IMG/VR virus record: IMGVR_UViG_3300037518_000193
Span: 1-29,262 of that record
Origin: a virus
Lineage: Duplodnaviria > Caudoviricetes
DNA length: 29,262 nucleotides
Strand: one strand, 5' to 3'
In this document: positions 419 to 26,784 of the stretch, piece after piece
How the letters are laid out: each line of letters opens with the position of its first letter
Position numbering within the stretch: the stretch's first letter is position 1
Position numbers and translations under genes: made by a program
The notes under the pieces: model-generated
What the model was told of the DNA's origin: nothing
Database searches by the model: none
The model's input: the letters and a program-made list of their open reading frames with translations, nothing else

Positions 419-442
419 CTAGACGCGGCTGAGCCCCCAGCC
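419..442. repeat. 24-bp direct repeat, copy 1
   Basis: CTAGACGCGGCTGAGCCCCCAGCC identical to 684-707. Confidence 0.95.
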
Positions 443-464
443 GGTTACAGGGTGTAACCCCGAA

Positions 465-497
465 CGTACAGAACCCCCGGCTGTTCACCGAGGGTTC
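465..497 (-). terminator. Intrinsic terminator-like hairpin
   Basis: GAACCCTCGG-TGAACAG-CCGGGGGTTC then TGTACGTT; the G-U pair forms only on the minus strand. Confidence 0.65.
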
Positions 498-645
498 CGG
501 CCACGCTGTCTCGGTCATGGCACCGGGAGCCAATTCATAACGTGCTACTCCACACACGGCCGCTTCGATTGGGTACGGCTCCCCAACACCATTACTTCTG
601 GTCCGAGCGTCGGTGCCTACTCGTCTCCCCGTCGGAAGCTTGCCA
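465..645 (-). ncRNA. Candidate ~180-nt structured small RNA
   Basis: Own promoter and terminator; nested stems GGCACC/GGTGCC and GGGAGCC/GGCTCCC; no RBS-supported ORF. Confidence 0.55.
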
Positions 646-651
646 AGAGGC

Positions 652-679
652 AGTGTACTCCACGCCACACGCCTGTCAA
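652..679 (-). promoter_or_regulatory. SigA/sigma70-type promoter
   Basis: TTGACA (679-674), 16 nt, TACACT (657-652). Confidence 0.7.
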
Positions 680-683
680 AGAC

Positions 684-707
684 CTAGACGCGGCTGAGCC
701 CCCAGCC
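684..707. repeat. 24-bp direct repeat, copy 2
   Basis: Identical to 419-442. Confidence 0.95.
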
Positions 708-760
708 AGTAGAGAAGGGGCCTGGGGGCTCGCTCGGCCAGGGAGGGCAGCCGATAGCCG
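691..760 (-). ncRNA. Two-hairpin three-way junction with C-rich loops (candidate antisense RNA or terminator)
   Basis: Closing stem CGGCT/AGCCG; hairpin TCGGCTG-CCCTCCC-TGGCCGA; hairpin GAGCCCCCAG-16 nt-CTGGGGGCTC. Confidence 0.5.
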
Positions 761-2101
761 CTACTCGCCCGCTCTCACTTCGGGCGGGGATGTGAACGAC
801 GCGAACAGGGCCGCAGCCTCACGCTCAGCGACCTCGGCCAGGAGCGGCGCCAGATCCTCCCGCAACGCCAACACCTCCGCCGACACCCTGCGCACGATCT
901 CGACAACCGGGTGAGACGGCGCGGCGGGCAACGGCGATAAGGTCGAGTACCGCACCGTCTCACCGGACCTGATGGAAGCGGCGATCGGGAAGCCGGGGAC
1001 GTTCACCACCAGCGCCGCGATGAGCGAATGTCGGTCACCGTGGGGCCGCCAGTCGCCCGACAGTTGGTGACGCCTGAGCGTGTCGATCTGGTCGTCGGTG
1101 ACACCGGGACGCAACGCACCCGACACCCACACCCCGTGAGTGTCCTCACCGGCCCGAACGTAGGCGACCGTCAGCGCAGTGTCGGCGTAGTGGCGGGCAG
1201 CGTCGGCACGGCCCGCGTTGGGTCCGGCGTGCTCGGCGTCCATCGTGATACAGCCGACAGCGACCACGACGTTGTCCTCGCACTCCAGGTGCGAGTTGCT
1301 GTGGAAGTCGGCGTAGTCGGTGCCATCCCGTGGCGGGGTGACACAGACGCCGACATAGCCGCGGTGACAGGTGCCCCACAGGGCCAGGTGTCCGTAGACG
1401 TGGCCGTCGTCGGTGACAGTGACCGGGGTGGGGCCTGCGAGCTCGGGATCGTCGAACCACTGCCGGGGTGGCTTGCGCAGCGACGCCGCGGTGAGGGTCA
1501 CGGTGGCTGCGGCGACCGGTTCGATCTCGGCTGCCTCGAACGCGGGGATGAGGACGATGGTGGCGGCAGCGATCCGGGCCGTCGCCACATCCAACAGCCA
1601 CGACATGCACCAGCCTTCGTCGTCCTCCTGGGTGCATTCCATCTCGGCGTCCATATCGGACAGATGCACCGACACGCCCCGGACCCGGCCCTCGTCCACC
1701 ATCCGTCGGGCCTCCATCGCCTCGTCGTCGGTGTCCCAATCGACGGAGGCCACCACCCATTCGGTGCCGTCACGGTCACGTTTGGCGAAGTCGACCAGGT
1801 TCCCGACGAATACGGCGTCGCCGTGGGCCATCTCGGAGTCGGAGAACGTGAGCGGCAGCGGCGGTTCACGCCACCCGAGGTCACGGAAGATGCGCACGAA
1901 GTTGATCGACCCGTCGTTGGTTTCCACCCCGATCGGGGCGAGCCACGCCAGGTAGGAGTCTGCGGAGCCTTCGATGTCGTCGTCGGCGGCGAGGTGTTCG
2001 ATGGCGGCGACCAGCACCGAAGCTTCGGCGGGGTCGGATGCGTCGGCGGTGAGTGCTCGGTCGGTGTTGAGGGACTGCCAGAGTGCGAGTACGGGGTCCA
2101 T
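761..2101 (-). CDS. Capsid maturation protease-like head protein
   Basis: 446 aa; N-terminal prohead-protease-like region (GVSV, ATIVLIPAF) and GHLALWGTCH..CVTPP..LSGDWR..VNVPGFP domain as in actinophage head proteins; lies between portal and capsid. Confidence 0.75.
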   Translation of the reverse strand: MDPVLALWQSLNTDRALTADASDPAEASVLVAAIEHLAADDDIEGSADSYLAWLAPIGVETNDGSINFVRIFRDLGWREPPLPLTFSDSEMAHGDAVFVGNLVDFAKRDRDGTEWVVASVDWDTDDEAMEARRMVDEGRVRGVSVHLSDMDAEMECTQEDDEGWCMSWLLDVATARIAAATIVLIPAFEAAEIEPVAAATVTLTAASLRKPPRQWFDDPELAGPTPVTVTDDGHVYGHLALWGTCHRGYVGVCVTPPRDGTDYADFHSNSHLECEDNVVVAVGCITMDAEHAGPNAGRADAARHYADTALTVAYVRAGEDTHGVWVSGALRPGVTDDQIDTLRRHQLSGDWRPHGDRHSLIAALVVNVPGFPIAASIRSGETVRYSTLSPLPAAPSHPVVEIVRRVSAEVLALREDLAPLLAEVAEREAAALFASFTSPPEVRAGE

Positions 2102-2152: not shown

Positions 2153-2163
2153 TACGCAGTGGA

Positions 2164-2457
2164 TCACTCGCGTACTCTGATACTGAACCCCGGCAGCCCG
2201 AGACCGAAATCCGGATCAGACGACGCGGGGCGCATCGGCAGCCGCGCCTCGGTCTCGTCGGGCGAGCAGTGCGGACCACTAGGTGACAGTCCGGCTGGCA
2301 TCCCCGTGAACCTGAACACCTCGGCGCACTGAAGGCACCGTACCCGCACGTCCAGACTGAATGCTATCGGGGACCCGCCTCCATCGCCGGTGATCCGGTT
2401 CATGTCGCAGTCCACCTGGAAGTCCTCATGAGGACACGCTCGGTCTGGATCGATCAT
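2164..2457 (-). CDS. Hypothetical protein with Cys motif (CPHEDF..CLQC)
   Basis: ATG overlaps upstream stop (TGATG); 97 aa. Confidence 0.7.
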   Translation of the reverse strand: MIDPDRACPHEDFQVDCDMNRITGDGGGSPIAFSLDVRVRCLQCAEVFRFTGMPAGLSPSGPHCSPDETEARLPMRPASSDPDFGLGLPGFSIRVRE

Positions 2458-2999
2458 CACCGGTCGTCCTCGTCGGGCACCACCGCCTCGTAAACAGCCT
2501 TGGCCCACCTGGCATCACCGAGGGCCGTATGCCTATCGAAGAGTGACGGGTCCACGCCGATAGCCTTGCTCAGCTCGTCTGAGTTCCACGGGGGACCCCA
2601 TCCCAGCTTGCCTGCCGCTAGTGCTTCGACATCGACGAGGTGATAGTGCCAAGTGGCAGCCTGTCCGTGCCGACGCAACCACGGCCCAAGGAAGGCCGCA
2701 TCGAATGAAGGGGCGGCGCCGACCAGATGCTGCCCGTCTAGCCGCTGTGCGACAGTTGACGCAGCTTGCCGTGGGTCGGACCAATAGCCCCGCTCGTCCT
2801 TCGTGAACGGGTCGCTAGACCTGGGCGAGCGTTCGTAGAACCGTCCGATACGAAGGGCCATCGGGTCGGCAACGGCGAGGTCGGGACGGAATCGGAACTC
2901 GTACTCCTGGCCGATGCCCAGGATGAAGGCCAACTCCCATATCTCGTGTCTGTCGGGGTCGAGACCTGTCGTCTCGGTATCCAAGAACACAACACCCAT
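2457..2999 (-). CDS. DnaQ-like DEDDh 3'-5' exonuclease
   Basis: FLDTETTGL, FDAAFL and HTALGDA motifs; GAAGGGAG RBS. Confidence 0.9.
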   Translation of the reverse strand: MGVVFLDTETTGLDPDRHEIWELAFILGIGQEYEFRFRPDLAVADPMALRIGRFYERSPRSSDPFTKDERGYWSDPRQAASTVAQRLDGQHLVGAAPSFDAAFLGPWLRRHGQAATWHYHLVDVEALAAGKLGWGPPWNSDELSKAIGVDPSLFDRHTALGDARWAKAVYEAVVPDEDDR

Positions 3000-3026
3000 A
3001 GCCGTCTCCCTTCGGTCTTGGGGTCT

Positions 3027-3045
3027 GACGTTAGCGCAAGCGTCG
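3027..3045 (-). repeat. 19-bp repeat, putative promoter/operator, copy 2
   Basis: Identical to 2134-2152. Confidence 0.8.
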
Positions 3046-3222
3046 CATCGCTGCCGCCATCCTCTGGCTCAGCGTCTCCATCTCGTCGGCCAGGGTGCGC
3101 GGTCCGTCACCGCCGAACAGTTCAGCCAGGGTCACCCCGGCGGCGGTGTCATGCTCACAATGGTAGCGGCATCGGCGGTACGGGTCAGGCTGTGGACGCT
3201 CAGGGAGTGCGAGGACCCTCAC
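3031..3222 (-). CDS. Small hypothetical protein (CRYHCEH)
   Basis: GTGA-coupled to upstream gene. Confidence 0.55.
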   Translation of the reverse strand: MRVLALPERPQPDPYRRCRYHCEHDTAAGVTLAELFGGDGPRTLADEMETLSQRMAAAMRRLR

Positions 3223-3482
3223 GCCGCGGGCTTCTTGGTCCGAGCGGGACGGAGCACCTTGTCTGGGTCCTTCGTCCGAGGCTCAACGCTTAGGCCACCG
3301 CTCGCTGCGACGAGTCCAACGACCAACCCGATTGGCCCTAGAGCCAAGGACTCAATGATGGCCTCGCGGCGATCCTCGACCGTCCACGCCAGGGTATCCG
3401 TCCACCACCAACGGTACAGCAGATACCCACCCCAGGCGCATAGCCCCCATACCAGCACCCCAATGAGAACGGCCGTCATCAT
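3219..3482 (-). CDS. Small membrane protein
   Basis: ATGA coupling; two hydrophobic segments. Confidence 0.65.
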   Translation of the reverse strand: MMTAVLIGVLVWGLCAWGGYLLYRWWWTDTLAWTVEDRREAIIESLALGPIGLVVGLVAASGGLSVEPRTKDPDKVLRPARTKKPAA

Positions 3483-3874
3483 GCCAGCGCCTCGGTCATC
3501 GCGTCGGCGTGGTCGGGGTGCTGGCTGCTGACGTGGGCGCGGACGTTGGAGAACGACCGTTGGCACCAGGGGCAGACGCCGCTGGCGATGCGGTTGCGGA
3601 TACGGGTCAGGTGGCCCTTGACGGCCCGCCGAGAACGCTCTGTCGCTTCGAGTTGGTCCTCGGCGTGGGTGCGACGAGCACGTTCGGCCGCGAGGTCGCG
3701 GGCAAGCCGCCGGTTCTCGGTCTCAAAGAAGTGGATCCGGTGGCCATTAGGGCACCAGAAGTCCTGGCCGTCGTTCTGCCGGTCGGCGAGCATCCTCTCC
3801 GGCATGGCGAACCTGACCCGGCACACGCCGCAAGAGGTCACCGTGAGAACGCCGACGTACGTGATCGTTGCCAT
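3479..3874 (-). CDS. Zinc-finger/coiled-coil protein
   Basis: CGVC..FWCPNGH, coiled coil, CPWC..H..H C2H2-like motif; strong RBS. Confidence 0.75.
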   Translation of the reverse strand: MATITYVGVLTVTSCGVCRVRFAMPERMLADRQNDGQDFWCPNGHRIHFFETENRRLARDLAAERARRTHAEDQLEATERSRRAVKGHLTRIRNRIASGVCPWCQRSFSNVRAHVSSQHPDHADAMTEALA

Positions 3875-10227: not shown

Positions 10228-10368
10228 TCACATCGCGGTGAGGTAGGGAGGTCGCAGGCAGGGGCGCGAGTAGCCCCCGGTGTAGGGGGAACCCAGCCGG
10301 GGGCTGACTCGTGTCGTGGGGCTTGTCGTCCTAGACCCTACCCCACCCTACCCCACCCGACGCCGTGA
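10228..10368 (-). other. Long intergenic hairpin element with G-run tandem repeat
   Basis: GGTGGGGTAGGG/CCCTACCTCACC and CGAGT-C-AGCCCCCGG/CCGGGGGCT-ACTCG stems. Confidence 0.55.
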
Positions 10369-10379
10369 GTGATGGCACC

Positions 10380-10958
10380 TCAGCCGGGCAGCGCCTCGTG
10401 GGCCCGCTCGATCGCCGCATCCTCGGACTGCTGCGCCTCTAACAACGCAATGCCACGCTCCACCGCCGACAGCGTCAACGTCTCTTCACGCCCCGTCGCC
10501 TCACCCATCTCCAGCCGGTACTTGTCCAGCGCGATCCCAGCCGCCACCATCAGGTCCCGAGCGTCACGGCCCGACCAGACGGCCGGAGATGGGTCCTCGA
10601 CTTCGACCTCTAGCGCCGCCACCCGTTCCTCGATGCTGCGTATCTCTCCCGGCGGCAACTTCTTGTGCTCAGGATCGGGCTCACGCATCATCGAACGTAC
10701 GGCCGCGACCAACTCACCAGCCGCCAGCAGCAACTCCTCCCGAAGCTCCGAGCGAAGCACCTCGTGCGACAGGTTCCGCGACTCGACCGTCGCCCGTATC
10801 CGAGCCATCCGATCCCGGTACAGACCCTCGTCGTGCGCCCAATGCCTGATCGTCCCCGCTGGCACCTCCGACACCTCGGCCGCGCGCCGTGAACCGTGCT
10901 CGACGTAGAGCGCCAGTGCCTCTGCTCGCTTTTCCGGGGGCCAGGTTGTTCGGGCCAT
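10380..10958 (-). CDS. Probable terminase small subunit with N-terminal HTH
   Basis: KRAEALALY..AAEVSEVPAGTIRHWA HTH; GIALDK helix; upstream of terL; leaderless-type promoter. Confidence 0.7.
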   Translation of the reverse strand: MARTTWPPEKRAEALALYVEHGSRRAAEVSEVPAGTIRHWAHDEGLYRDRMARIRATVESRNLSHEVLRSELREELLLAAGELVAAVRSMMREPDPEHKKLPPGEIRSIEERVAALEVEVEDPSPAVWSGRDARDLMVAAGIALDKYRLEMGEATGREETLTLSAVERGIALLEAQQSEDAAIERAHEALPG

Positions 10959-13047: not shown

Positions 13048-13320
13048 TCAGTCGATCCAGGCGGTGTAAGCAGCCGACATCCGTACGAGTGCCGCCACCA
13101 GGTCCGGGTGCTGGTCGTTGAGGGCGACCCGCTGGTCATGGTCGAGGTCCGCCCATGCTTCGGCGACCGCACGCAGTCGGGTCCGTGCCAGCGTGGCGGC
13201 GGTCCACAGGTTCTTCAGCATGTCGAGGGCGTCGTCGAGTGACGGCGCCGGCCCCATCTTGACGAGCCCGAGCGCATCTTCGAGCGTCGGAGTCTTGCGC
13301 GCCTGGTCGGTCATCGTCAC
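13048..13320 (-). CDS. Hypothetical helical protein
   Basis: GTGA-coupled to the SpoU gene; internal repeat PTLEDAL/PSLDDAL. Confidence 0.65.
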   Translation of the reverse strand: MTMTDQARKTPTLEDALGLVKMGPAPSLDDALDMLKNLWTAATLARTRLRAVAEAWADLDHDQRVALNDQHPDLVAALVRMSAAYTAWID

Positions 13321-13820
13321 ACCCAACCGACGAGCTTATAGATGGCGAGCGACGCGGCGACTGCCACATTGAGCGAGTTGCCGACGCCGGTCATCGGGAT
13401 AGCAACGGCGAGGTCGCATAGCGCCAGAGCCTCAGCAGGAACGCCCGTGGTCTCGTGTCCGAGGACCAGGATCGTCGGCCCCAGCACGTCGAGACCGGGC
13501 AGGTCGCGTAAGTCGATGGACTCGTCGGTCAACTCCAGCGCCACCTTCGTCAGTGTCGAGGCGCGGAGATAGGCCAGCGGGTTACCGACCTGGCGGTGGA
13601 TGGTGTTGTGAATGCCGATCGTGTTGCCCTTGCGTAACGCCCTGCTCGCCAGAGCGTCCATCGGCACGACCATCTCAGCGCCGACAGCGTCGCATGTCCG
13701 GGCCAAGGTGCCTAGGTTCTCGCCGGTCTTGGGCCAGAGCGCGGCAACCTGTAGGGGAATGCGCACCGTGGCGGTACGGAGCCGATGCTCTCGCAACTCG
13801 TCCGAAGCGAAGGCTCTCAT
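13317..13820 (-). CDS. SpoU/TrmH-family (SPOUT) RNA 2'-O-methyltransferase
   Basis: NLGTLARTCDAVG, LVLGHETTGV and IPMTGVGNSLNVAVA motifs. Confidence 0.9.
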   Translation of the reverse strand: MRAFASDELREHRLRTATVRIPLQVAALWPKTGENLGTLARTCDAVGAEMVVPMDALASRALRKGNTIGIHNTIHRQVGNPLAYLRASTLTKVALELTDESIDLRDLPGLDVLGPTILVLGHETTGVPAEALALCDLAVAIPMTGVGNSLNVAVAASLAIYKLVGWV

Positions 13821-13972
13821 GGTGTTCCCTTGTTGATCCGGGTGAGGTGGTAGTGGACGGCCTGGGTGGAGATGTCGAGTGCCGCTGCGATCTGGCGGAC
13901 GGTGAGCCCGGCCGCTCGTAGCTGGGCGACCTGTGCCCGTGTATGCCCGTACGGTCCCTTCGGTTCAGCCAT
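13817..13972 (-). CDS. Small HTH DNA-binding protein
   Basis: GLTVRQIAAALDISTQAVHYHL; 51 aa. Confidence 0.8.
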   Translation of the reverse strand: MAEPKGPYGHTRAQVAQLRAAGLTVRQIAAALDISTQAVHYHLTRINKGTP

Positions 13973-14234
13973 CGTCGACCCCGAATTGGTCCGTGACCTC
14001 GTGGCGGATGTCGGGCCAAGGGTCACCGTCCCAGTAGGCCGAGACGTGCAGGCCGCCTCGGCGTTGTGCGGTCAGCCAGAAGTGCAGCGACGACTCCGAC
14101 CCCTCGCGGTACAGGGCGAACCAGACCTGCCCGCCGGCCATGCGCTCGAGGTGGATGCTGACGCCGTGGGCGACGATCTCGTCGACGTCGGCGTCGGGGG
14201 GTGCGGCGGTGATGCGTTGCAGGTTGCGTCCCAT
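13965..14234 (-). CDS. Hypothetical protein, first gene of leftward operon
   Basis: ATG 7 nt after TATGGT; overlaps HTH start. Confidence 0.65.
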   Translation of the reverse strand: MGRNLQRITAAPPDADVDEIVAHGVSIHLERMAGGQVWFALYREGSESSLHFWLTAQRRGGLHVSAYWDGDPWPDIRHEVTDQFGVDDG

Positions 14235-14241
14235 CGCCCTC

Positions 14242-14282
14242 ACCATAACAGGTTTGACAATCCCCTCAAGTTGTCATATATT
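14242..14282. promoter_or_regulatory. Divergent promoters with palindromic operator
   Basis: + strand TTGACA(14254)-N17-TATATT; - strand TGtTATGGT; TGACAA-N10-TTGTCA inverted repeat at 14255-14276. Confidence 0.85.
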
Positions 14283-14316
14283 GTGACGTAGAGAAGGGAA
14301 CGAAGGGAGACCCCCC

Positions 14317-14415
14317 ATGCGCAACATCCTCCGCAGACTCATCACCAGGCGCCGCGAGCGGTACGTCCGTTGCGGCACCTTCACCCACCGTCTCACCCCA
14401 GGAAGGGCGTCATGA
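14317..14415 (+). CDS. 32-aa Arg-rich first ORF of early operon
   Basis: GAAGGGAG RBS; ATGA-coupled to next gene. Confidence 0.6.
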   Translation: MRNILRRLITRRRERYVRCGTFTHRLTPGRAS

Positions 14416-14627
14416 CCGTAGACCCGCAGATCACCGCCGAGTGGAAGGTCGCCCGTGACGCACAGGCCGACCTCGTCAACAAGCTGGGAGGCACCGCCGC
14501 CTACATCACAGCCCTGCGAGCCAAGGACGCCGCTGCCCTCGCAACGATGCGTGGCTACCACGACGCCAGCCGTCGCCGCCTGTCCCGTATCACGGGTGTC
14601 GAGATCGTCGCGGTGGTGGTGTCGTGA
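14412..14627 (+). CDS. Hypothetical protein
   Basis: GGAAGGG RBS; coupled at both ends. Confidence 0.65.
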   Translation: MTVDPQITAEWKVARDAQADLVNKLGGTAAYITALRAKDAAALATMRGYHDASRRRLSRITGVEIVAVVVS

Positions 14628-14851
14628 CCGTCGTCGACTTCTATCGGGAACCGGGCGGCCCTGCCCACATCGCGATCCGGCATCTCGGCATCGCCCGGAA
14701 CCCCGTCGCAGGGTGCGGCGTACGTCTGGATGGTCTCGTCCACCTTGCCTCAGGGTCCAACGATCCCGCCGCCAAACCGGGCTTCTGGGACACTATGTGC
14801 CCGACCTGTCGGCACATGTTCGACCGACTTGACCCGGAAGTGGACTCATGA
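14624..14851 (+). CDS. Small zinc-finger-like protein
   Basis: H..CG..CPTC; coupled. Confidence 0.65.
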   Translation: MTVVDFYREPGGPAHIAIRHLGIARNPVAGCGVRLDGLVHLASGSNDPAAKPGFWDTMCPTCRHMFDRLDPEVDS

Positions 14852-15363
14852 TCTGGGTCATCGTGGCGATGGTGGCGTCGTTCGGTGCAGGTGTCGCCTT
14901 CGTCGGATGCCTCGCCACGCTCCCGAAGGGCTGGACCCTCGGTGTCGCGGTCCGCTCTGTCGTGGACCGGTTCGATGCGTGGGTCGACGAGTTGGTCCGT
15001 GTCCATTGGGTCGACGAGTCGCTGGTCGACGAGGAGCCGCCGCCCTACTCCCCCGACCGCATCTCGGTGCAGGTCTGGTCGGCTGAGAATCCGGCCCCAG
15101 CCGAGTGGGTGTCGGTCATGGATGTAACCGATGGGGGCGTCGACTACTACGACCGGGGCGCGCATCCTGGCCCGGTGCGGCACTTCCCGACCGAGTTCCC
15201 GCCCGGCACCATCTTTGGGTCGCCCAAAGATGACCCGGAGCCATGGCTAGAGGGCGCCTATGACGAGCGGCTAATAAGCTGGCTCGCCGATGTCGCTGCG
15301 CTCCCGCCCGATATGCCGGTCAAGATCATCTTCACGCCGCTCTCGGGCGAGGGGGAGCGATGA
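14848..15363 (+). CDS. Membrane-anchored hypothetical protein
   Basis: N-terminal hydrophobic helix; coupled. Confidence 0.65.
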   Translation: MIWVIVAMVASFGAGVAFVGCLATLPKGWTLGVAVRSVVDRFDAWVDELVRVHWVDESLVDEEPPPYSPDRISVQVWSAENPAPAEWVSVMDVTDGGVDYYDRGAHPGPVRHFPTEFPPGTIFGSPKDDPEPWLEGAYDERLISWLADVAALPPDMPVKIIFTPLSGEGER

Positions 15364-16307
15364 CCTTTCACGGTGTCGCCCTCCCCGCCCTCACCCGCGA
15401 CGAGTGGCTGGCCGAGCGCCGTAACGGTCTCGGCGCCTCCGATGTCCCCGCCCTCCTGGGCCTGTCCCCGTACTCCACCCCGTGGCAGGTGTGGGTTTCC
15501 AAGGTGACCGACGCCCCCGACTCCGACCCGTCCGAGGCGATGGAGTGGGGTCTCGCCCTAGAGGATGCGATCCTGACCCGCTGGGCCGACCGTGAACGCT
15601 TGTTCGTCGGGCACCGCGCTGAGGCGTGGCGTCACCCCGAGTACAAGTGGGCACGGGCAACACCCGACGGCCTGCTGTTCACTGACCCCGACGACGATGA
15701 CGCGGAGCCGTGGGCTGTGGTCGACGTCAAGAATGTCCGTAGCGGCGCAGACGAATGGGACCGCGGCGACACCGTGCCCCCCTACATCGTCGCCCAGGTC
15801 CAGTGGCAGATGTTCGTCACCGGCCTCGACCGCGGCTTTGTGGTCGCCCTCATCGGCGGTAACCGGCTCCACGTCCACGAACTCGAAGCCGACCCTGCTG
15901 CCCACGCCGAGATGTTCCAGGTGAGCCAGGAGTGGTGGGACCGTCACGTCGTGAGCGGCGAACCGCCCCAGGTGGAGGCCGCCGACAATGCGCTGCTGGC
16001 GTCACTGTGGCCGACGTCGACAGAGAAGGCGGTCGAGGTGGACCCCGAGCTCGTCGCTGAGCTTCGCGCTGCCCGTGCCGGCGCCAAGGTGGCTGAGGCC
16101 CGTAAGGATGAGGCCGAGGCTCGTCTCAAGGCGGCGTTGGGTGATGCCGATACGGCGGTGTGTGACGGGCGCGTGGCTGCGACGTGGCGTACCCAGTCGT
16201 CGACCCGTGTCGATGTGACTCGGCTGCGTGCCGCCGAGCCTGAGGTGGCGGCTCGTTTCACCACGACGTCCACGACCCGTGTGCTACGACCCAAGGAGGA
16301 CAAGTGA
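15360..16307 (+). CDS. YqaJ-like (lambda-exo/RecE type) recombination exonuclease
   Basis: WLAERRNGLGASD, LGLSPY, ATPDG, DVKN and QVQWQM motifs. Confidence 0.92.
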   Translation: MTFHGVALPALTRDEWLAERRNGLGASDVPALLGLSPYSTPWQVWVSKVTDAPDSDPSEAMEWGLALEDAILTRWADRERLFVGHRAEAWRHPEYKWARATPDGLLFTDPDDDDAEPWAVVDVKNVRSGADEWDRGDTVPPYIVAQVQWQMFVTGLDRGFVVALIGGNRLHVHELEADPAAHAEMFQVSQEWWDRHVVSGEPPQVEAADNALLASLWPTSTEKAVEVDPELVAELRAARAGAKVAEARKDEAEARLKAALGDADTAVCDGRVAATWRTQSSTRVDVTRLRAAEPEVAARFTTTSTTRVLRPKEDK

Positions 16308-16651
16308 TGGGACGGAACCGATCAACCACCGAACTACTGAAGCCATTCGCCGTTGAACTCGGCGTGGCTATCGACGCTGCAACACCATGCAACGTATGCC
16401 ACGGGACCGGTGTGCGCCTTGGTGTAGTGCCGATCAATGGGCCGCTCTACTCGGCACTCAACAGCGGGACCAAGGGCGCGAAGTCGTCTTACGCCCTGGC
16501 GCACCTGCGGTCCAAGACGAACAGCTTCAAGGTGGACGATGCCCGGTGGCTTGCCGACCACCACTTCGGCGGCGACCTGGCAGCAGCGATCGACTTCCGC
16601 GATCGACTCGCCCACGCCATCGCGGCCCACGATGAGGAGGACAAGGAATGA
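16304..16651 (+). CDS. Hypothetical protein with one CxxCxGxG motif
   Basis: AAGGAGG RBS; CNVCHGTG. Confidence 0.65.
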   Translation: MMGRNRSTTELLKPFAVELGVAIDAATPCNVCHGTGVRLGVVPINGPLYSALNSGTKGAKSSYALAHLRSKTNSFKVDDARWLADHHFGGDLAAAIDFRDRLAHAIAAHDEEDKE

Positions 16652-16812
16652 CCGAGCACGCCCGAGAGTCAGAAGGCCCGTCGACCTCGTGGATCAGGAA
16701 CCACCACGAGACGCTGGAGGGGGCCGAGGCGCTGCGGTGGGACGAGCACCAGGCCGAGGTTCGTGAGGCCAAGGCGGACGACGAGAGGAAGGCACGCTAT
16801 GCAAAGGGTTAG
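16648..16812 (+). CDS. 54-aa hypothetical protein
   Basis: GAGGAGG RBS; ATGA coupling. Confidence 0.55.
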   Translation: MTEHARESEGPSTSWIRNHHETLEGAEALRWDEHQAEVREAKADDERKARYAKG

Positions 16813-17338: not shown

Positions 17339-17621
17339 CCTGTTCGACCCCGCTACCCGTGGCTCGAGTTGGACCGCCTGTGACGACTGCGGCGCCCGAT
17401 GGACCGGTGAGAACGAATCCCATTGTTCCATTTGCCATAGACACCTCGGCGGTCTCGGCCTGTTCGAGCGTCACATCAAGCACGGCCGCTGCCTCTCAGA
17501 CAGGGCACTCAGGGAGCGGGGGATGCGTAAGCAGTATCGGGAGCCACGGTGCCCGGTTTGGCGCCTCGGTGGTGCCGTATTGGTACCTCTGCCGCAAGAT
17601 GAGGAGGACGGCGATGAGTGA
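17331..17621 (+). CDS. Zinc-finger protein (FDxHR-like)
   Basis: CDDCG..HCSICH..FERH..C. Confidence 0.7.
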   Translation: MTDLFDPATRGSSWTACDDCGARWTGENESHCSICHRHLGGLGLFERHIKHGRCLSDRALRERGMRKQYREPRCPVWRLGGAVLVPLPQDEEDGDE

Positions 17622-17814
17622 ACTGGAGTGGGTGGGGCTACGTGAGATCGCCGCCATGCTCGGGATCTCGTACCCGGCGGTCCAGCGCAGGGTGGAACGT
17701 GGCACGCTACCCGCTGCTGAGGAACGGATCTCAGGTAACCCGGTGTGGCGTCGTGCCACCATCAAGGCGTACCAGGCAGAGGCGAAGCGACTGAGCGAAG
17801 GAGAGGCGACATGA
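17614..17814 (+). CDS. AlpA/excisionase-like HTH protein
   Basis: VGLREIAAMLGIS..RGTLP..PVWRRATI; GAGGAGG RBS. Confidence 0.8.
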   Translation: MSELEWVGLREIAAMLGISYPAVQRRVERGTLPAAEERISGNPVWRRATIKAYQAEAKRLSEGEAT

Positions 17815-18608
17815 CCACCACCGCAATCAAGGCCCGCGGCGAGGACCCGCCCGTCATCGCGCTGTTGAAGCAGTTCGATGCCGACATCACCCAGGCGCTC
17901 CCTCGAGACTGGAGCCCCGGACGATTCCAGCAATCCGTCATCTCCGTCGTCCGCAGCAACCGGGCACTCCTCAACGTGGAGGCGATCACCCTCGTGTCGT
18001 CGGTGCTGCTCGCCGCCCAACTCGGTCTCGACCCGTCCCCCGGTGCCGCGCAGTGCTGGATCATCCCGCGGCGCAACTCCAAGACCGGCAAGCAGGAGGC
18101 GTCGATGCAGGTGGCGGCTCGGGGGTGGCGTGATCTGGCGATGCGGTCGCCGAAGGTGGCGACGGTCGAGGACCGGATCGTGCGTGAGGGCGACGAGTTC
18201 CAGTTCCAGTACGGGGCGGGCGGGACCGCGTGGTCGCACCGGCCTAAGGGCACCGTCGGCCGCGATTGGGTCTACGTGTACTGCGTGGCTCGGATGGTGA
18301 CGGGCGGCGAGTACTTCGAGGCGTGGACCAAGGAGGAGGTGTTGGCTCACCGGGACCGGTACTCGGATGACTGGAAGCGCAACAAGGCGAAGTCGTCGTG
18401 GGGCCGCGAGGAGGAGGGCATGGCTCGTAAGACCCTGGTGATCCAGGTGGCGAAGCGGCTGCCGACGACGCCAGAGATTCGGGCGGCGCTCGTGGCTGAC
18501 GAGACGACGCCGCACAGGATCGACCCTGACATCGTGGGATTGCTGGAGGACGAGGCCGGCATCATCGAGGGTGACCTAGTGGACGAGGACGATGGAGGGG
18601 AGTCGTGA
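17811..18608 (+). CDS. recT: RecT-family ssDNA annealing protein
   Basis: AAQLGLDP, CWIIP, RGWRDLAMRS, VREGDEF and MARKT motifs; same operon as the YqaJ exonuclease. Confidence 0.9.
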   Translation: MTTTAIKARGEDPPVIALLKQFDADITQALPRDWSPGRFQQSVISVVRSNRALLNVEAITLVSSVLLAAQLGLDPSPGAAQCWIIPRRNSKTGKQEASMQVAARGWRDLAMRSPKVATVEDRIVREGDEFQFQYGAGGTAWSHRPKGTVGRDWVYVYCVARMVTGGEYFEAWTKEEVLAHRDRYSDDWKRNKAKSSWGREEEGMARKTLVIQVAKRLPTTPEIRAALVADETTPHRIDPDIVGLLEDEAGIIEGDLVDEDDGGES

Positions 18609-20239: not shown

Positions 20240-20809
20240 ATGATCCGCCGCATCCTCATCGCCACCGCCCTGGCCCTGTTCATCCTGGCCCTGTCCTCGA
20301 TGACGTGGGCTGAGGCCGACTGCCGGTTCTCATGCGAGACGACAACGACCGGCGGGCCGTCTGAGACGACCACCACCACAGGAGGCACGCCATCAAGCAC
20401 CACCACCACGACTACGGCCATCCCATTGACAACGACAACCCACCCTTTGGACACGACCACCAGCACGACGGATGGCACCACCACCACGACGACCAAGGCG
20501 CCCCCTGGCTCCACAACAACCACGCGCCCTGGCACAACGAGCACGACGCTCCCGAACACGTCCACGTCATCATCGACCTCAACTCTCCCGACAACGACGC
20601 TCGGCACATCAACCGTGCCTCCATCATCCACTTCGGTCCCGCCGACCACTCCCACGACCCCGCCATCTACCCCGGCACCACCACCAGTGACGCCGCCGAA
20701 GCCTGAGCTACCGGTGACCGGGTTCGAGACGTCGACGATCGCGGCGCTGGGTGCCCTGGCGCTGCTGTCGGGGCTGCTGGCGTTGCGGACAACGAAGGAG
20801 GAGAAGTGA
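20240..20809 (+). CDS. Secreted Thr/Ser/Pro-rich LPXTG-anchored surface protein
   Basis: Signal peptide ending AEA, long T/S/P tract, LPVTG, hydrophobic helix, short charged tail. Confidence 0.8.
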   Translation: MIRRILIATALALFILALSSMTWAEADCRFSCETTTTGGPSETTTTTGGTPSSTTTTTTAIPLTTTTHPLDTTTSTTDGTTTTTTKAPPGSTTTTRPGTTSTTLPNTSTSSSTSTLPTTTLGTSTVPPSSTSVPPTTPTTPPSTPAPPPVTPPKPELPVTGFETSTIAALGALALLSGLLALRTTKEEK

Positions 20810-25813: not shown

Positions 25814-26784
25814 CAGGTGTACTGCCTGACGCGGATAAGCACCACCAGGTCGGCGGCGAGGTTGGCGACGTCGATGTCGACCCGCAGGTAGTCACCGGCG
25901 GCGAAGGTGGCGGCAGCGTCGGGCCGGTTGTCGCCCGAGTCGTTGGTGCCGTCGGCGATCGTAGGCTCGGAGCCTCCGGCGAACACGGAGGTGGTGTTGA
26001 CGTTGACGTCGATCGTGGCGGGTCCGCCCGACGGTGCGGTGTCGACCATCGCTCGCACGTTGACGATCTCGCCGGGGTAATCCAGCGGCATCCGTGACGT
26101 CCCGGCCCCGACCGATAGCAACCCTCCCTGGGAGGCGGCGAGGGTGTGCTCAGGTGTGACGATGTTGCGGACTCCGGCGTCGAGTACGTGGCCCGTCGCC
26201 AGGTCGGTGGCGCGGTAGCCGTTGACGACGTTGGCGCCGCTGAACTCGGCGAACACCAGCCCGTACCGTGGGTCCGTCACGCCGGGGTCGAGTGACGACA
26301 CGTTGAGGTTGGCGATGGCGTTGCGGTTGGCCCCGGTGCCGACCCCGTTGTCGGCGAACGTCACCGCGTCGTAGGTGTTGTCCGTAGCTGACCCGCACGC
26401 GATTGACCAGTCGGTGCCTTGGTTGTCGTCGGCACCGACACCGAACACGACGCCGCCGCGGGTGGTGTCGACGCGGAGGCGGTCGATGCGGCCACGGGTG
26501 GTGTCGATGAGCACGGCGTCACCGGCGGGGCTGATCCCGTCGAGGTCGAGGCCGTCGACCTGAGCGTCGCTGCCGGTGATGGTGACGATCGGGTCCTCGG
26601 CGCCGGTGACCGAGGTCACGATGAGGTCGCGGTGCTTGTTGTCGGCGTCGCCGCTGATCTCGATTCGCCCCACACCAGAGAGCACGACGCGGTCGTAGTC
26701 GCCGCCGGGGACCAGGTAGTCGCCGCCGCCCAGGCCGAAGTTGCAGCGCTCCATGAAGCCTTCGACCACGAAGTCGAACGGCAT
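25813..26784 (-). CDS. Tail protein with beta-helix-like repeats and C-terminal beta-rich domain
   Basis: GGGAGG RBS, TGATG coupling; Asn/Asp/Gly beta-coil pattern. Confidence 0.65.
   Translation of the reverse strand: MPFDFVVEGFMERCNFGLGGGDYLVPGGDYDRVVLSGVGRIEISGDADNKHRDLIVTSVTGAEDPIVTITGSDAQVDGLDLDGISPAGDAVLIDTTRGRIDRLRVDTTRGGVVFGVGADDNQGTDWSIACGSATDNTYDAVTFADNGVGTGANRNAIANLNVSSLDPGVTDPRYGLVFAEFSGANVVNGYRATDLATGHVLDAGVRNIVTPEHTLAASQGGLLSVGAGTSRMPLDYPGEIVNVRAMVDTAPSGGPATIDVNVNTTSVFAGGSEPTIADGTNDSGDNRPDAAATFAAGDYLRVDIDVANLAADLVVLIRVRQYT

Follow-up and report, generated by a model that had tools for sequence, protein, structure and literature searches.

The c4 RNA of phages P1 and P7 lies within the operon that it controls, and the icd-ant genes of this system have a short first open reading frame (ORF) that is coupled to the genes downstream. 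The two-loop phage antisense RNAs that have been tested (c4 and the CI RNA of P4) belong to enterobacterial phages and have lysogeny genes as their targets. As described in PMC5320573, the b′ loop of c4 RNA partly occludes the ribosome-binding site (RBS) of its target and a′ binds upstream and gives specificity, and the account of P4 CI RNA in PMC4825925 has it processed from a primary transcript and pairing with two short sites. Pairing can also begin with a single loop, as in IS10 RNA-OUT, whose loop is described as initiating pairing on the 5′ tail of its target (PMC4737173), and in high-GC Gram-positives the C-rich loops of the 6C sRNA are described as pairing with RBS regions rich in G and as able to repress, seemingly with no chaperone needed (PMC6486639). 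The Rfam C4 family is listed for Proteobacteria and phages (PMC2864571). Our literature searches, at the level of titles and listings, returned no description of a c4-like RNA from an actinophage; the supplement of PMC12197685 includes 38 sRNAs of unknown function, which may affect how novel the element is. Here we describe a candidate RNA element of a putative actinophage, which we propose to be a trans-acting antisense RNA that silences the divergent rightward (RecET) operon via its 5′ leader; we give this reading a probability of roughly 0.55, and judged from sequence it is the best single explanation of the locus.

The virus record analyzed here over its whole length (herein referred to as the window) is linear, 29,262 bases long and 66.7% GC, and is estimated to be 38% complete. 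Its head maturation protease gene (761..2101, minus strand; PHROG 18402/859) has tblastn matches to annotated actinophage capsid maturation proteases, and the protein is 31–52% identical, among the matches listed, to those of Gordonia, Mycobacterium, Microbacterium, and Arthrobacter phages, a kinship that points to an actinobacterial host. The best-matching sequencing runs come from sediment and soil metagenomes, and run X1 may itself have supplied the record. Two sets of genes diverge from a control region at about 14234–14290. Those running leftward include an HTH gene, a SpoU methylase, an AAA primase-like gene, the terminase, the portal, the protease, and the first part of a scaffold/capsid gene; those running rightward comprise small genes, a RecE/YqaJ nuclease (15360–16307), an excisionase-like HTH gene, and RecT (17745–18608, plus strand). 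HTH proteins are encoded at 13817–14026 and 17359–17814. The SpoU-family RNA methylase (PF00588, E 5.7e-22; 13317–13820, minus strand) sits near the start of the leftward operon, a set of variable genes that includes a DnaQ-like exonuclease lies between portal and protease (2164–3874, minus strand), and the rightward operon encodes a Thr/Pro-rich protein (20240–20809, plus strand) predicted, by inspection, to be secreted and to carry an LPxTG-like motif as well as a C-terminal membrane anchor. Morphogenesis genes run leftward, on the strand that carries the candidate element; the target that we propose for it heads the rightward operon, 13.6 kb away.

The candidate antisense RNA is about 72 nt long and non-coding (690..761, minus strand) and occupies the 3′ region of the protease gene, starting at the last base of the stop codon and hence directly after the protease, as the initial annotation had placed it. 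When isolated, 70 nt of the minus strand are predicted to fold into a three-way junction (−36.6 kcal/mol, z −1.95, with 11 of 200 shuffles folding as well), and this three-stem fold is both the minimum free energy and the centroid structure for isolated RNAs of 70–74 nt. It consists of a closing helix P1 (761–756 with 695–690), a helix P2 (754–749 with 739–734), and a 12-bp helix P3 (731–720 with 707–696) that begins 30 nt after the protease stop. Loop 1 carries an anti-Shine–Dalgarno (SD) seed at 740–745, comparable with b′ of c4, and loop 2 carries the presumptive specificity site at 709–719, comparable with a′; the C runs in these loops are 3–4 long. The initial annotation described a fold with a CCCUCCC loop and two G-U pairs; such forms are predicted to be isoenergetic with the main fold. 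The further suggestion that those G-U pairs fix the strand does not survive, as the plus strand of the same 70 nt folds almost as well (−35.7 kcal/mol, z −1.06); the strand of the element instead follows from the direction of the protease gene.

P3 is stable and holds loop 2 open: both stay folded in all contexts examined, and P3 has a pairing probability of 1.0 in both long folds. The junction around it is predicted to be marginal within a long transcript. Competing pairings take the place of P1, P2, and an open loop 1 when 121, 220, 452, or 454 nt of the window are folded (for the longest folds, this reading comes from the profiles of unpaired bases and the output structures) and in five out of six transcript prefixes of increasing length, whereas in the close relative L056 one 193-nt fold retains them and a 185-nt fold does not. 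The three-way junction is therefore found in the isolated RNA but not in most longer ones, and a model in which both loops act depends on processing to an RNA of about 72 nt, the only form in which the loop-1 seed is exposed. There is no TANNNT hexamer in the 140 nt upstream of the element, and a promoter of its own is thus not evident.

The loop-2 seed is matched exactly at one distant place. The 11-mer GTAGAGAAGGG occurs at 709–719 and at 14288–14298, both on the plus strand, and these are its sole two exact copies in the contig; likewise, AGGGAG at 740–745 is found again at 14304–14309, with the ATG at 14317 following 7 nt on. The two copies are oppositely oriented relative to their transcripts, as antisense pairing requires, and for a minus-strand RNA the two complementary sites lie in antiparallel order. 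Perfect complementarity of loop 2 to 14288–14298, complementarity of CUCCCU (loop 1 plus one stem base) to the SD of the first rightward gene, and the order of the two sites had all been claimed in the initial annotation, and all are confirmed exactly. The loop-2 duplex with the leader is predicted at −20.9 kcal/mol, as against −17.2 kcal/mol at the next site in the contig (own locus excluded), and after accessibility correction the leader site ranks second of 1,130 seeds and is the best for loop 2; the top-ranked seed is a loop-1 match at 26130, inside a tail-region gene (−13.5 vs −13.1 kcal/mol for the leader). For loop 1, the duplex with the SD is predicted at −8.6 kcal/mol.

Both target sites fall within the predicted 5′ leader of the rightward operon (14288..14316, plus strand). 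The promoter that heads it (TTGACA-17-TATATT; 14254..14282, plus strand) matches the sigma-70 consensus at 11 of 12 positions, is the best of four found in the contig and ends 5 nt before the 11-mer copy begins; a 6-bp inverted repeat (14255–14260/14271–14276) overlaps it and is a possible operator. Placing the loop-2 target at the start of the transcript is hence consistent with the promoter just upstream, although the start itself, which we infer to be G14288 or A14290, determines how much of the site is transcribed: the duplex would be 11 bp long (−18.0 kcal/mol) in the first case and 9 bp (−14.0 kcal/mol) in the second. The leader is predicted to be unstructured, its centroid being fully unpaired, and no difference within 14240–14369 is listed for the X2, X3, and X4 contigs. 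It is followed by an arginine-rich ORF of 32 aa (14317..14415, plus strand), which looks real because all five of its listed strain variants are synonymous third positions; neither of the first two rightward ORFs has a Pfam match. The stop of this ORF overlaps the next start, and six further genes (14412..16812, plus strand), among them RecE/YqaJ, each overlap their predecessor by 4 nt, with RecT downstream of the chain. This arrangement agrees with the earlier description of a translationally coupled operon, yet several of the genes carry their own SD, so that the coupling may be partial. Sequence inspection further points to an overlapping leftward promoter (14234..14269, minus strand; extended −10 at 14250–14242) with a leaderless start at ATG 14234, which the consensus promoter scan did not call and which would head the strand that carries the element. 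The inverted repeat noted above spans both promoters. The leftward transcript seems to begin without a leader, and a single base is missing in X2 and X3 from the stretch that separates the −10 of this transcript from the ATG.

An 11-nt match is by itself common: of the 60 11-mers in 691–760, 3 are found again beyond the local repeat, and the segment 312–765 contributes 14 maximal words of at least 11 nt that have further copies elsewhere in the contig. The caution, voiced in the initial annotation, that the match might have arisen by chance is hence justified for the bare match; it is the placement (an exposed loop, a promoter 5′ end and a second site on the SD) that exceeds chance. Of the 14 recurring words, just one, the loop-2 word, maps to the leader of a promoter (coordinates read by eye). 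Shuffles that keep composition reach 11 nt in 174 of 200,000 cases for the loop and 180 of 200,000 for the leader (about 0.09%), and none of 367 real control hairpin loops from 124 fetched loci matches this leader over more than 7 nt; the 54 loci that had been selected for the motif were excluded from the control loops. Among 30,828 control loop–leader pairs, two reach 11 nt, in both of which the loop overlaps its own leader (L095/L166), and no non-overlapping pair does so. The SD match of loop 1 is less discriminating, being found in 16 of 2,195 control loops yet in 14% of its composition-kept shuffles. We estimate the chance of such a match per genome at about 1e-3 or less, with controls that are not composition-matched; as very many windows were scanned, this low figure is meaningful but not decisive.

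Relatives of the locus are few. One metagenome scan yielded two short relative contigs (L056 and L057), both of which lack the leader. The protease of L056 is 96% identical to that of the window, and its element and adjoining repeat show no substitutions over 77 nt, as against 94 over 1,341 nt in the protease gene; the L056 element differs by two single-C deletions, each just outside a seed. The 107 nt past the repeat are nearly as conserved, with one substitution, and the conservation is thus not specific to the seeds. The X2, X3, and X4 contigs lack one base at 745. Co-variation of loops and leader, which the initial annotation had proposed to look for in relatives, was not found: the leader is unchanged in X2–X4 and both seeds are unchanged in L056. 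The outcome is neutral, the close strains being invariant and the distant relatives being without the element, and the homologues of the element known here amount to two near-identical sequences. L057/L058 (53% protease identity) and L059 (43%) have unrelated intergenic DNA, with neither a homologous element nor a loop–leader pair in the protease–capsid gap, and screening G001 and G002 for loop–leader pairs of their own likewise gave none in that gap; G001 has one 10-nt loop–leader match outside it, against a weak predicted promoter. In IMG/VR, the two-site word pattern is found at 54 unrelated loci, none of which is similar to the window by blastn, and the 24-nt repeat, the promoter-leader, and the cassette described below have no matches. 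The portal search returned no relative, GTDB genomes gave no matches for the protease alignment or for the element, cultured phages are less than 60% identical in protease and RecT, and blastn of 400–765 against phages and plasmids gave chance-level pieces only; none of the sequence collections scanned yielded a relative of intermediate distance. L056 also lacks about 2153–3026 and part of 3232–3861 (window coordinates). The gaps of L058 (9869–10143) and L059 (11195–11414) each contain an anti-SD whose partner, in cis, is the SD of the scaffold/capsid gene, and they share the word CCATAGGG, which resembles a word before terL in the window (about 9990).

Directly downstream of the element lies a polymorphic, non-coding cassette of 241 nt (443..683, minus strand), a new observation that is absent from the earlier reading of this DNA. 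It is enclosed by two copies of a 24-nt direct repeat, one of which (684..707) overlaps the 3′ arm of the element and the other of which (419..442) duplicates that arm. L056 has a single repeat copy and no cassette, one X4 contig shows the same cassette-less joint and contigs of X1 and X2 span the cassette; the element is intact whether the cassette is present or absent. The cassette opens with a sigma-70-type promoter (679–652, minus strand; 10 of 12 positions) that faces the scaffold/capsid gene, and at its end are an 11-bp hairpin and a 7-bp perfect inverted repeat (444–460). Searches of Rfam, Pfam (E ≤ 1), phages, plasmids, and IMG/VR gave no match, and a protein-coding reading was rejected for want of a Pfam match at E ≤ 1. 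Candidate identities are a moron that supplies a promoter or a small RNA, and an insert of MITE-like type.

We hypothesize that the element links the late and early operons as follows. When leftward transcription reaches the head genes, the hairpin would be cut from the 3′ end of the protease mRNA or left as its stable 3′ end; processing, pairing in vivo, repression, and timing are all steps that we infer. Loop 2 would then capture the free 5′ end of the rightward mRNA, which could thread an 11-bp helix through the loop in the way that the RNA-IN tail does with RNA-OUT, and loop 1 would subsequently cover the SD of the 32-aa ORF. Loss of its translation could spread through the overlapping genes or expose the mRNA to Rho or nucleases, and the outcome would be negative feedback from morphogenesis to the early recombination genes; P3 may additionally serve as a terminator or processing hairpin. 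The trans-acting antisense switch proposed in the initial annotation is thus favored by the two sites, their order, and the standing of the leader as the top target of loop 2, whereas the invariance of the seeds and the lack of the element in distant relatives do not speak for it.

A simpler account, which we consider unlikely though a serious competitor, is that P3 is a terminator, processing, or stabilizing hairpin that ends the protease cistron in cis, that its match to the leader is a compositional coincidence with a purine-rich sequence, and that the role of loop 1 goes no further than that of a cis anti-SD toward the scaffold/capsid gene. The 9-bp core of the P3 stem is found at at least 119 unrelated IMG/VR viral loci (about 150 estimated), many of them with U-tails, and by this token P3 has, at the level of sequence, a generic terminator stem. 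It is placed right after a stop codon and ahead of a capsid-side promoter, and C-rich stem-loops feature as proposed alternative terminators in PMC6486639. In G001 and G002, the capsid-side SD has a cis pairing partner in the region between protease and capsid genes (−15.5 and −15.8 kcal/mol), a part that loop 1 of L056 can take as well (−13.2 kcal/mol). A similar structure moreover exists within the window, in the non-coding terS–terL gap (10240–10380, minus strand), where a strong hairpin (z −4.5) with the stem core of P3 and a C-rich loop containing CUAC is enclosed by the pairing of a G-rich arm, made of tandem repeats, to a C-rich one; considered as a second antisense to the rightward leader, this hairpin ranked only 250 and was rejected, so that a comparable hairpin is present here without a good leader partner. 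Nevertheless, P3 has only part of what defines an intrinsic terminator: the GC-rich stem after a stop is there, but in place of a 3–8-nt loop and a U-tract it has an 11-nt pyrimidine loop and no U-tract, and the terminator scan did not call it. Coincidence is further constrained by the shuffles, which produce a match anywhere in the leader about once in 1,100, a rate that does not yet take in where in the leader the match sits (the 5′ end) or the presence of a second site.

The same complementarity could also operate in the opposite direction, with the free 5′ end of the rightward transcript binding loop 2 in the nascent late mRNA, altering termination or processing at P3 and so timing capsid-side expression. 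This would draw on the terminator character of P3 and would need no processed small RNA, which fits a three-way junction that is marginal in long transcripts. We regard it as improbable, however, since P3 is very stable and the complement ends at the tip of its stem, leaving little room for strand invasion; in addition, a second site on the SD of the target suits translational blocking, and in this strain a separate promoter serves the capsid side.

Less probable still is a role for the 11-mer as double-stranded DNA to which a phage regulator binds; this regulator would repress the rightward promoter at +1 and act about 65 nt upstream of the 679–652 promoter. Both copies do adjoin promoters, and the HTH proteins encoded in the window are conceivable ligands, but there are just two copies with no excess of near-matches (4 seen and 4.89 expected at up to two mismatches), the 679–652 promoter is missing from strains that keep the 11-mer, and the position of the site in a loop and the second site are left unexplained. 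Stoperators are multi-copy sites, and a stoperator array is rejected on the same two copies and chance-level near-matches; a tRNA or tmRNA (none found) and membership of an Rfam family (no match in cmscan of the window or of 310–780) can be dismissed as well.

The antisense reading would, if correct, have consequences beyond this phage. It would describe an RNA-only feedback timer running from late to early genes and doing the job that Cro does in lambda, and it would mean that, for phages infecting high-GC Gram-positives, RNA alone can suffice to time the shut-off of early genes. Promoter cassettes would, moreover, be gained and lost at this locus by way of a duplication of the RNA's own 3′ arm, and the element would provide a compact (11 + 6 nt) and reprogrammable repressor for actinobacteria. 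The fuller statement, in which a c4-like actinophage RNA of independent origin is excised from the mRNA of the head genes and turns off a divergent early recombination operon at a distance of 13.6 kb by seizing its 5′ end and SD, with the timer and the cassette turnover just described as part of it, we put forward tentatively, as something short of an even chance.

The element shares some features with each of several known systems. With phage intrinsic terminators it has in common the 9-bp stem core of P3, and it is set apart from them by its large pyrimidine loop, the missing U-tract, and an extra upstream hairpin. Like actinobacterial 6C (B11), it aims C-rich loops at an RBS; unlike 6C, its C runs do not reach six, no promoter of its own was found and one specific phage target is predicted rather than many host targets. 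A search for 6C (RF01066) gave no matches, with sensitivity limited in that the Corynebacterium glutamicum control was also below the cut-off. As in IS10 RNA-OUT, the first step would be a loop acting on the target's free 5′ end; RNA-OUT, however, is cis-encoded and forms an extended duplex, whereas the element is trans-encoded, pairs over 11 + 6 bp only and, at a distance of 13.6 kb, does not overlap the 5′ end of its target. P4 CI likewise pairs through two short sites, but its targets seqA and seqC flank CI and cause premature termination, whereas here both sites are in one distant leader of 29 nt, and the loop-2 complement is found only at 14288, on the other strand.

The closest resemblance is to c4 of P1 and P7, from which the element differs in that its target is a divergent operon on the other strand rather than an antirepressor operon (no antirepressor family was found among the rightward genes scanned) and in that its upstream site is the predicted mRNA 5′ end; no match to Rfam C4 (RF01695) was obtained in G000 at E ≤ 10. 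The two RNAs are of similar length (about 72 nt here and about 77 nt for c4), and the closing helix and two hairpins of c4 have counterparts in the fold predicted for the isolated element. Release from a longer transcript, predicted here, is described for c4 (PMC5320573; PMC12197685), and the 32-aa first ORF coupled to the genes downstream recalls icd-ant. As in c4, one loop is predicted to act on the RBS and the other upstream for specificity, which at this locus is a matter of complementarity only. Although it falls outside Rfam C4 and 6C, the element is accordingly predicted, from this analysis, to work like c4.
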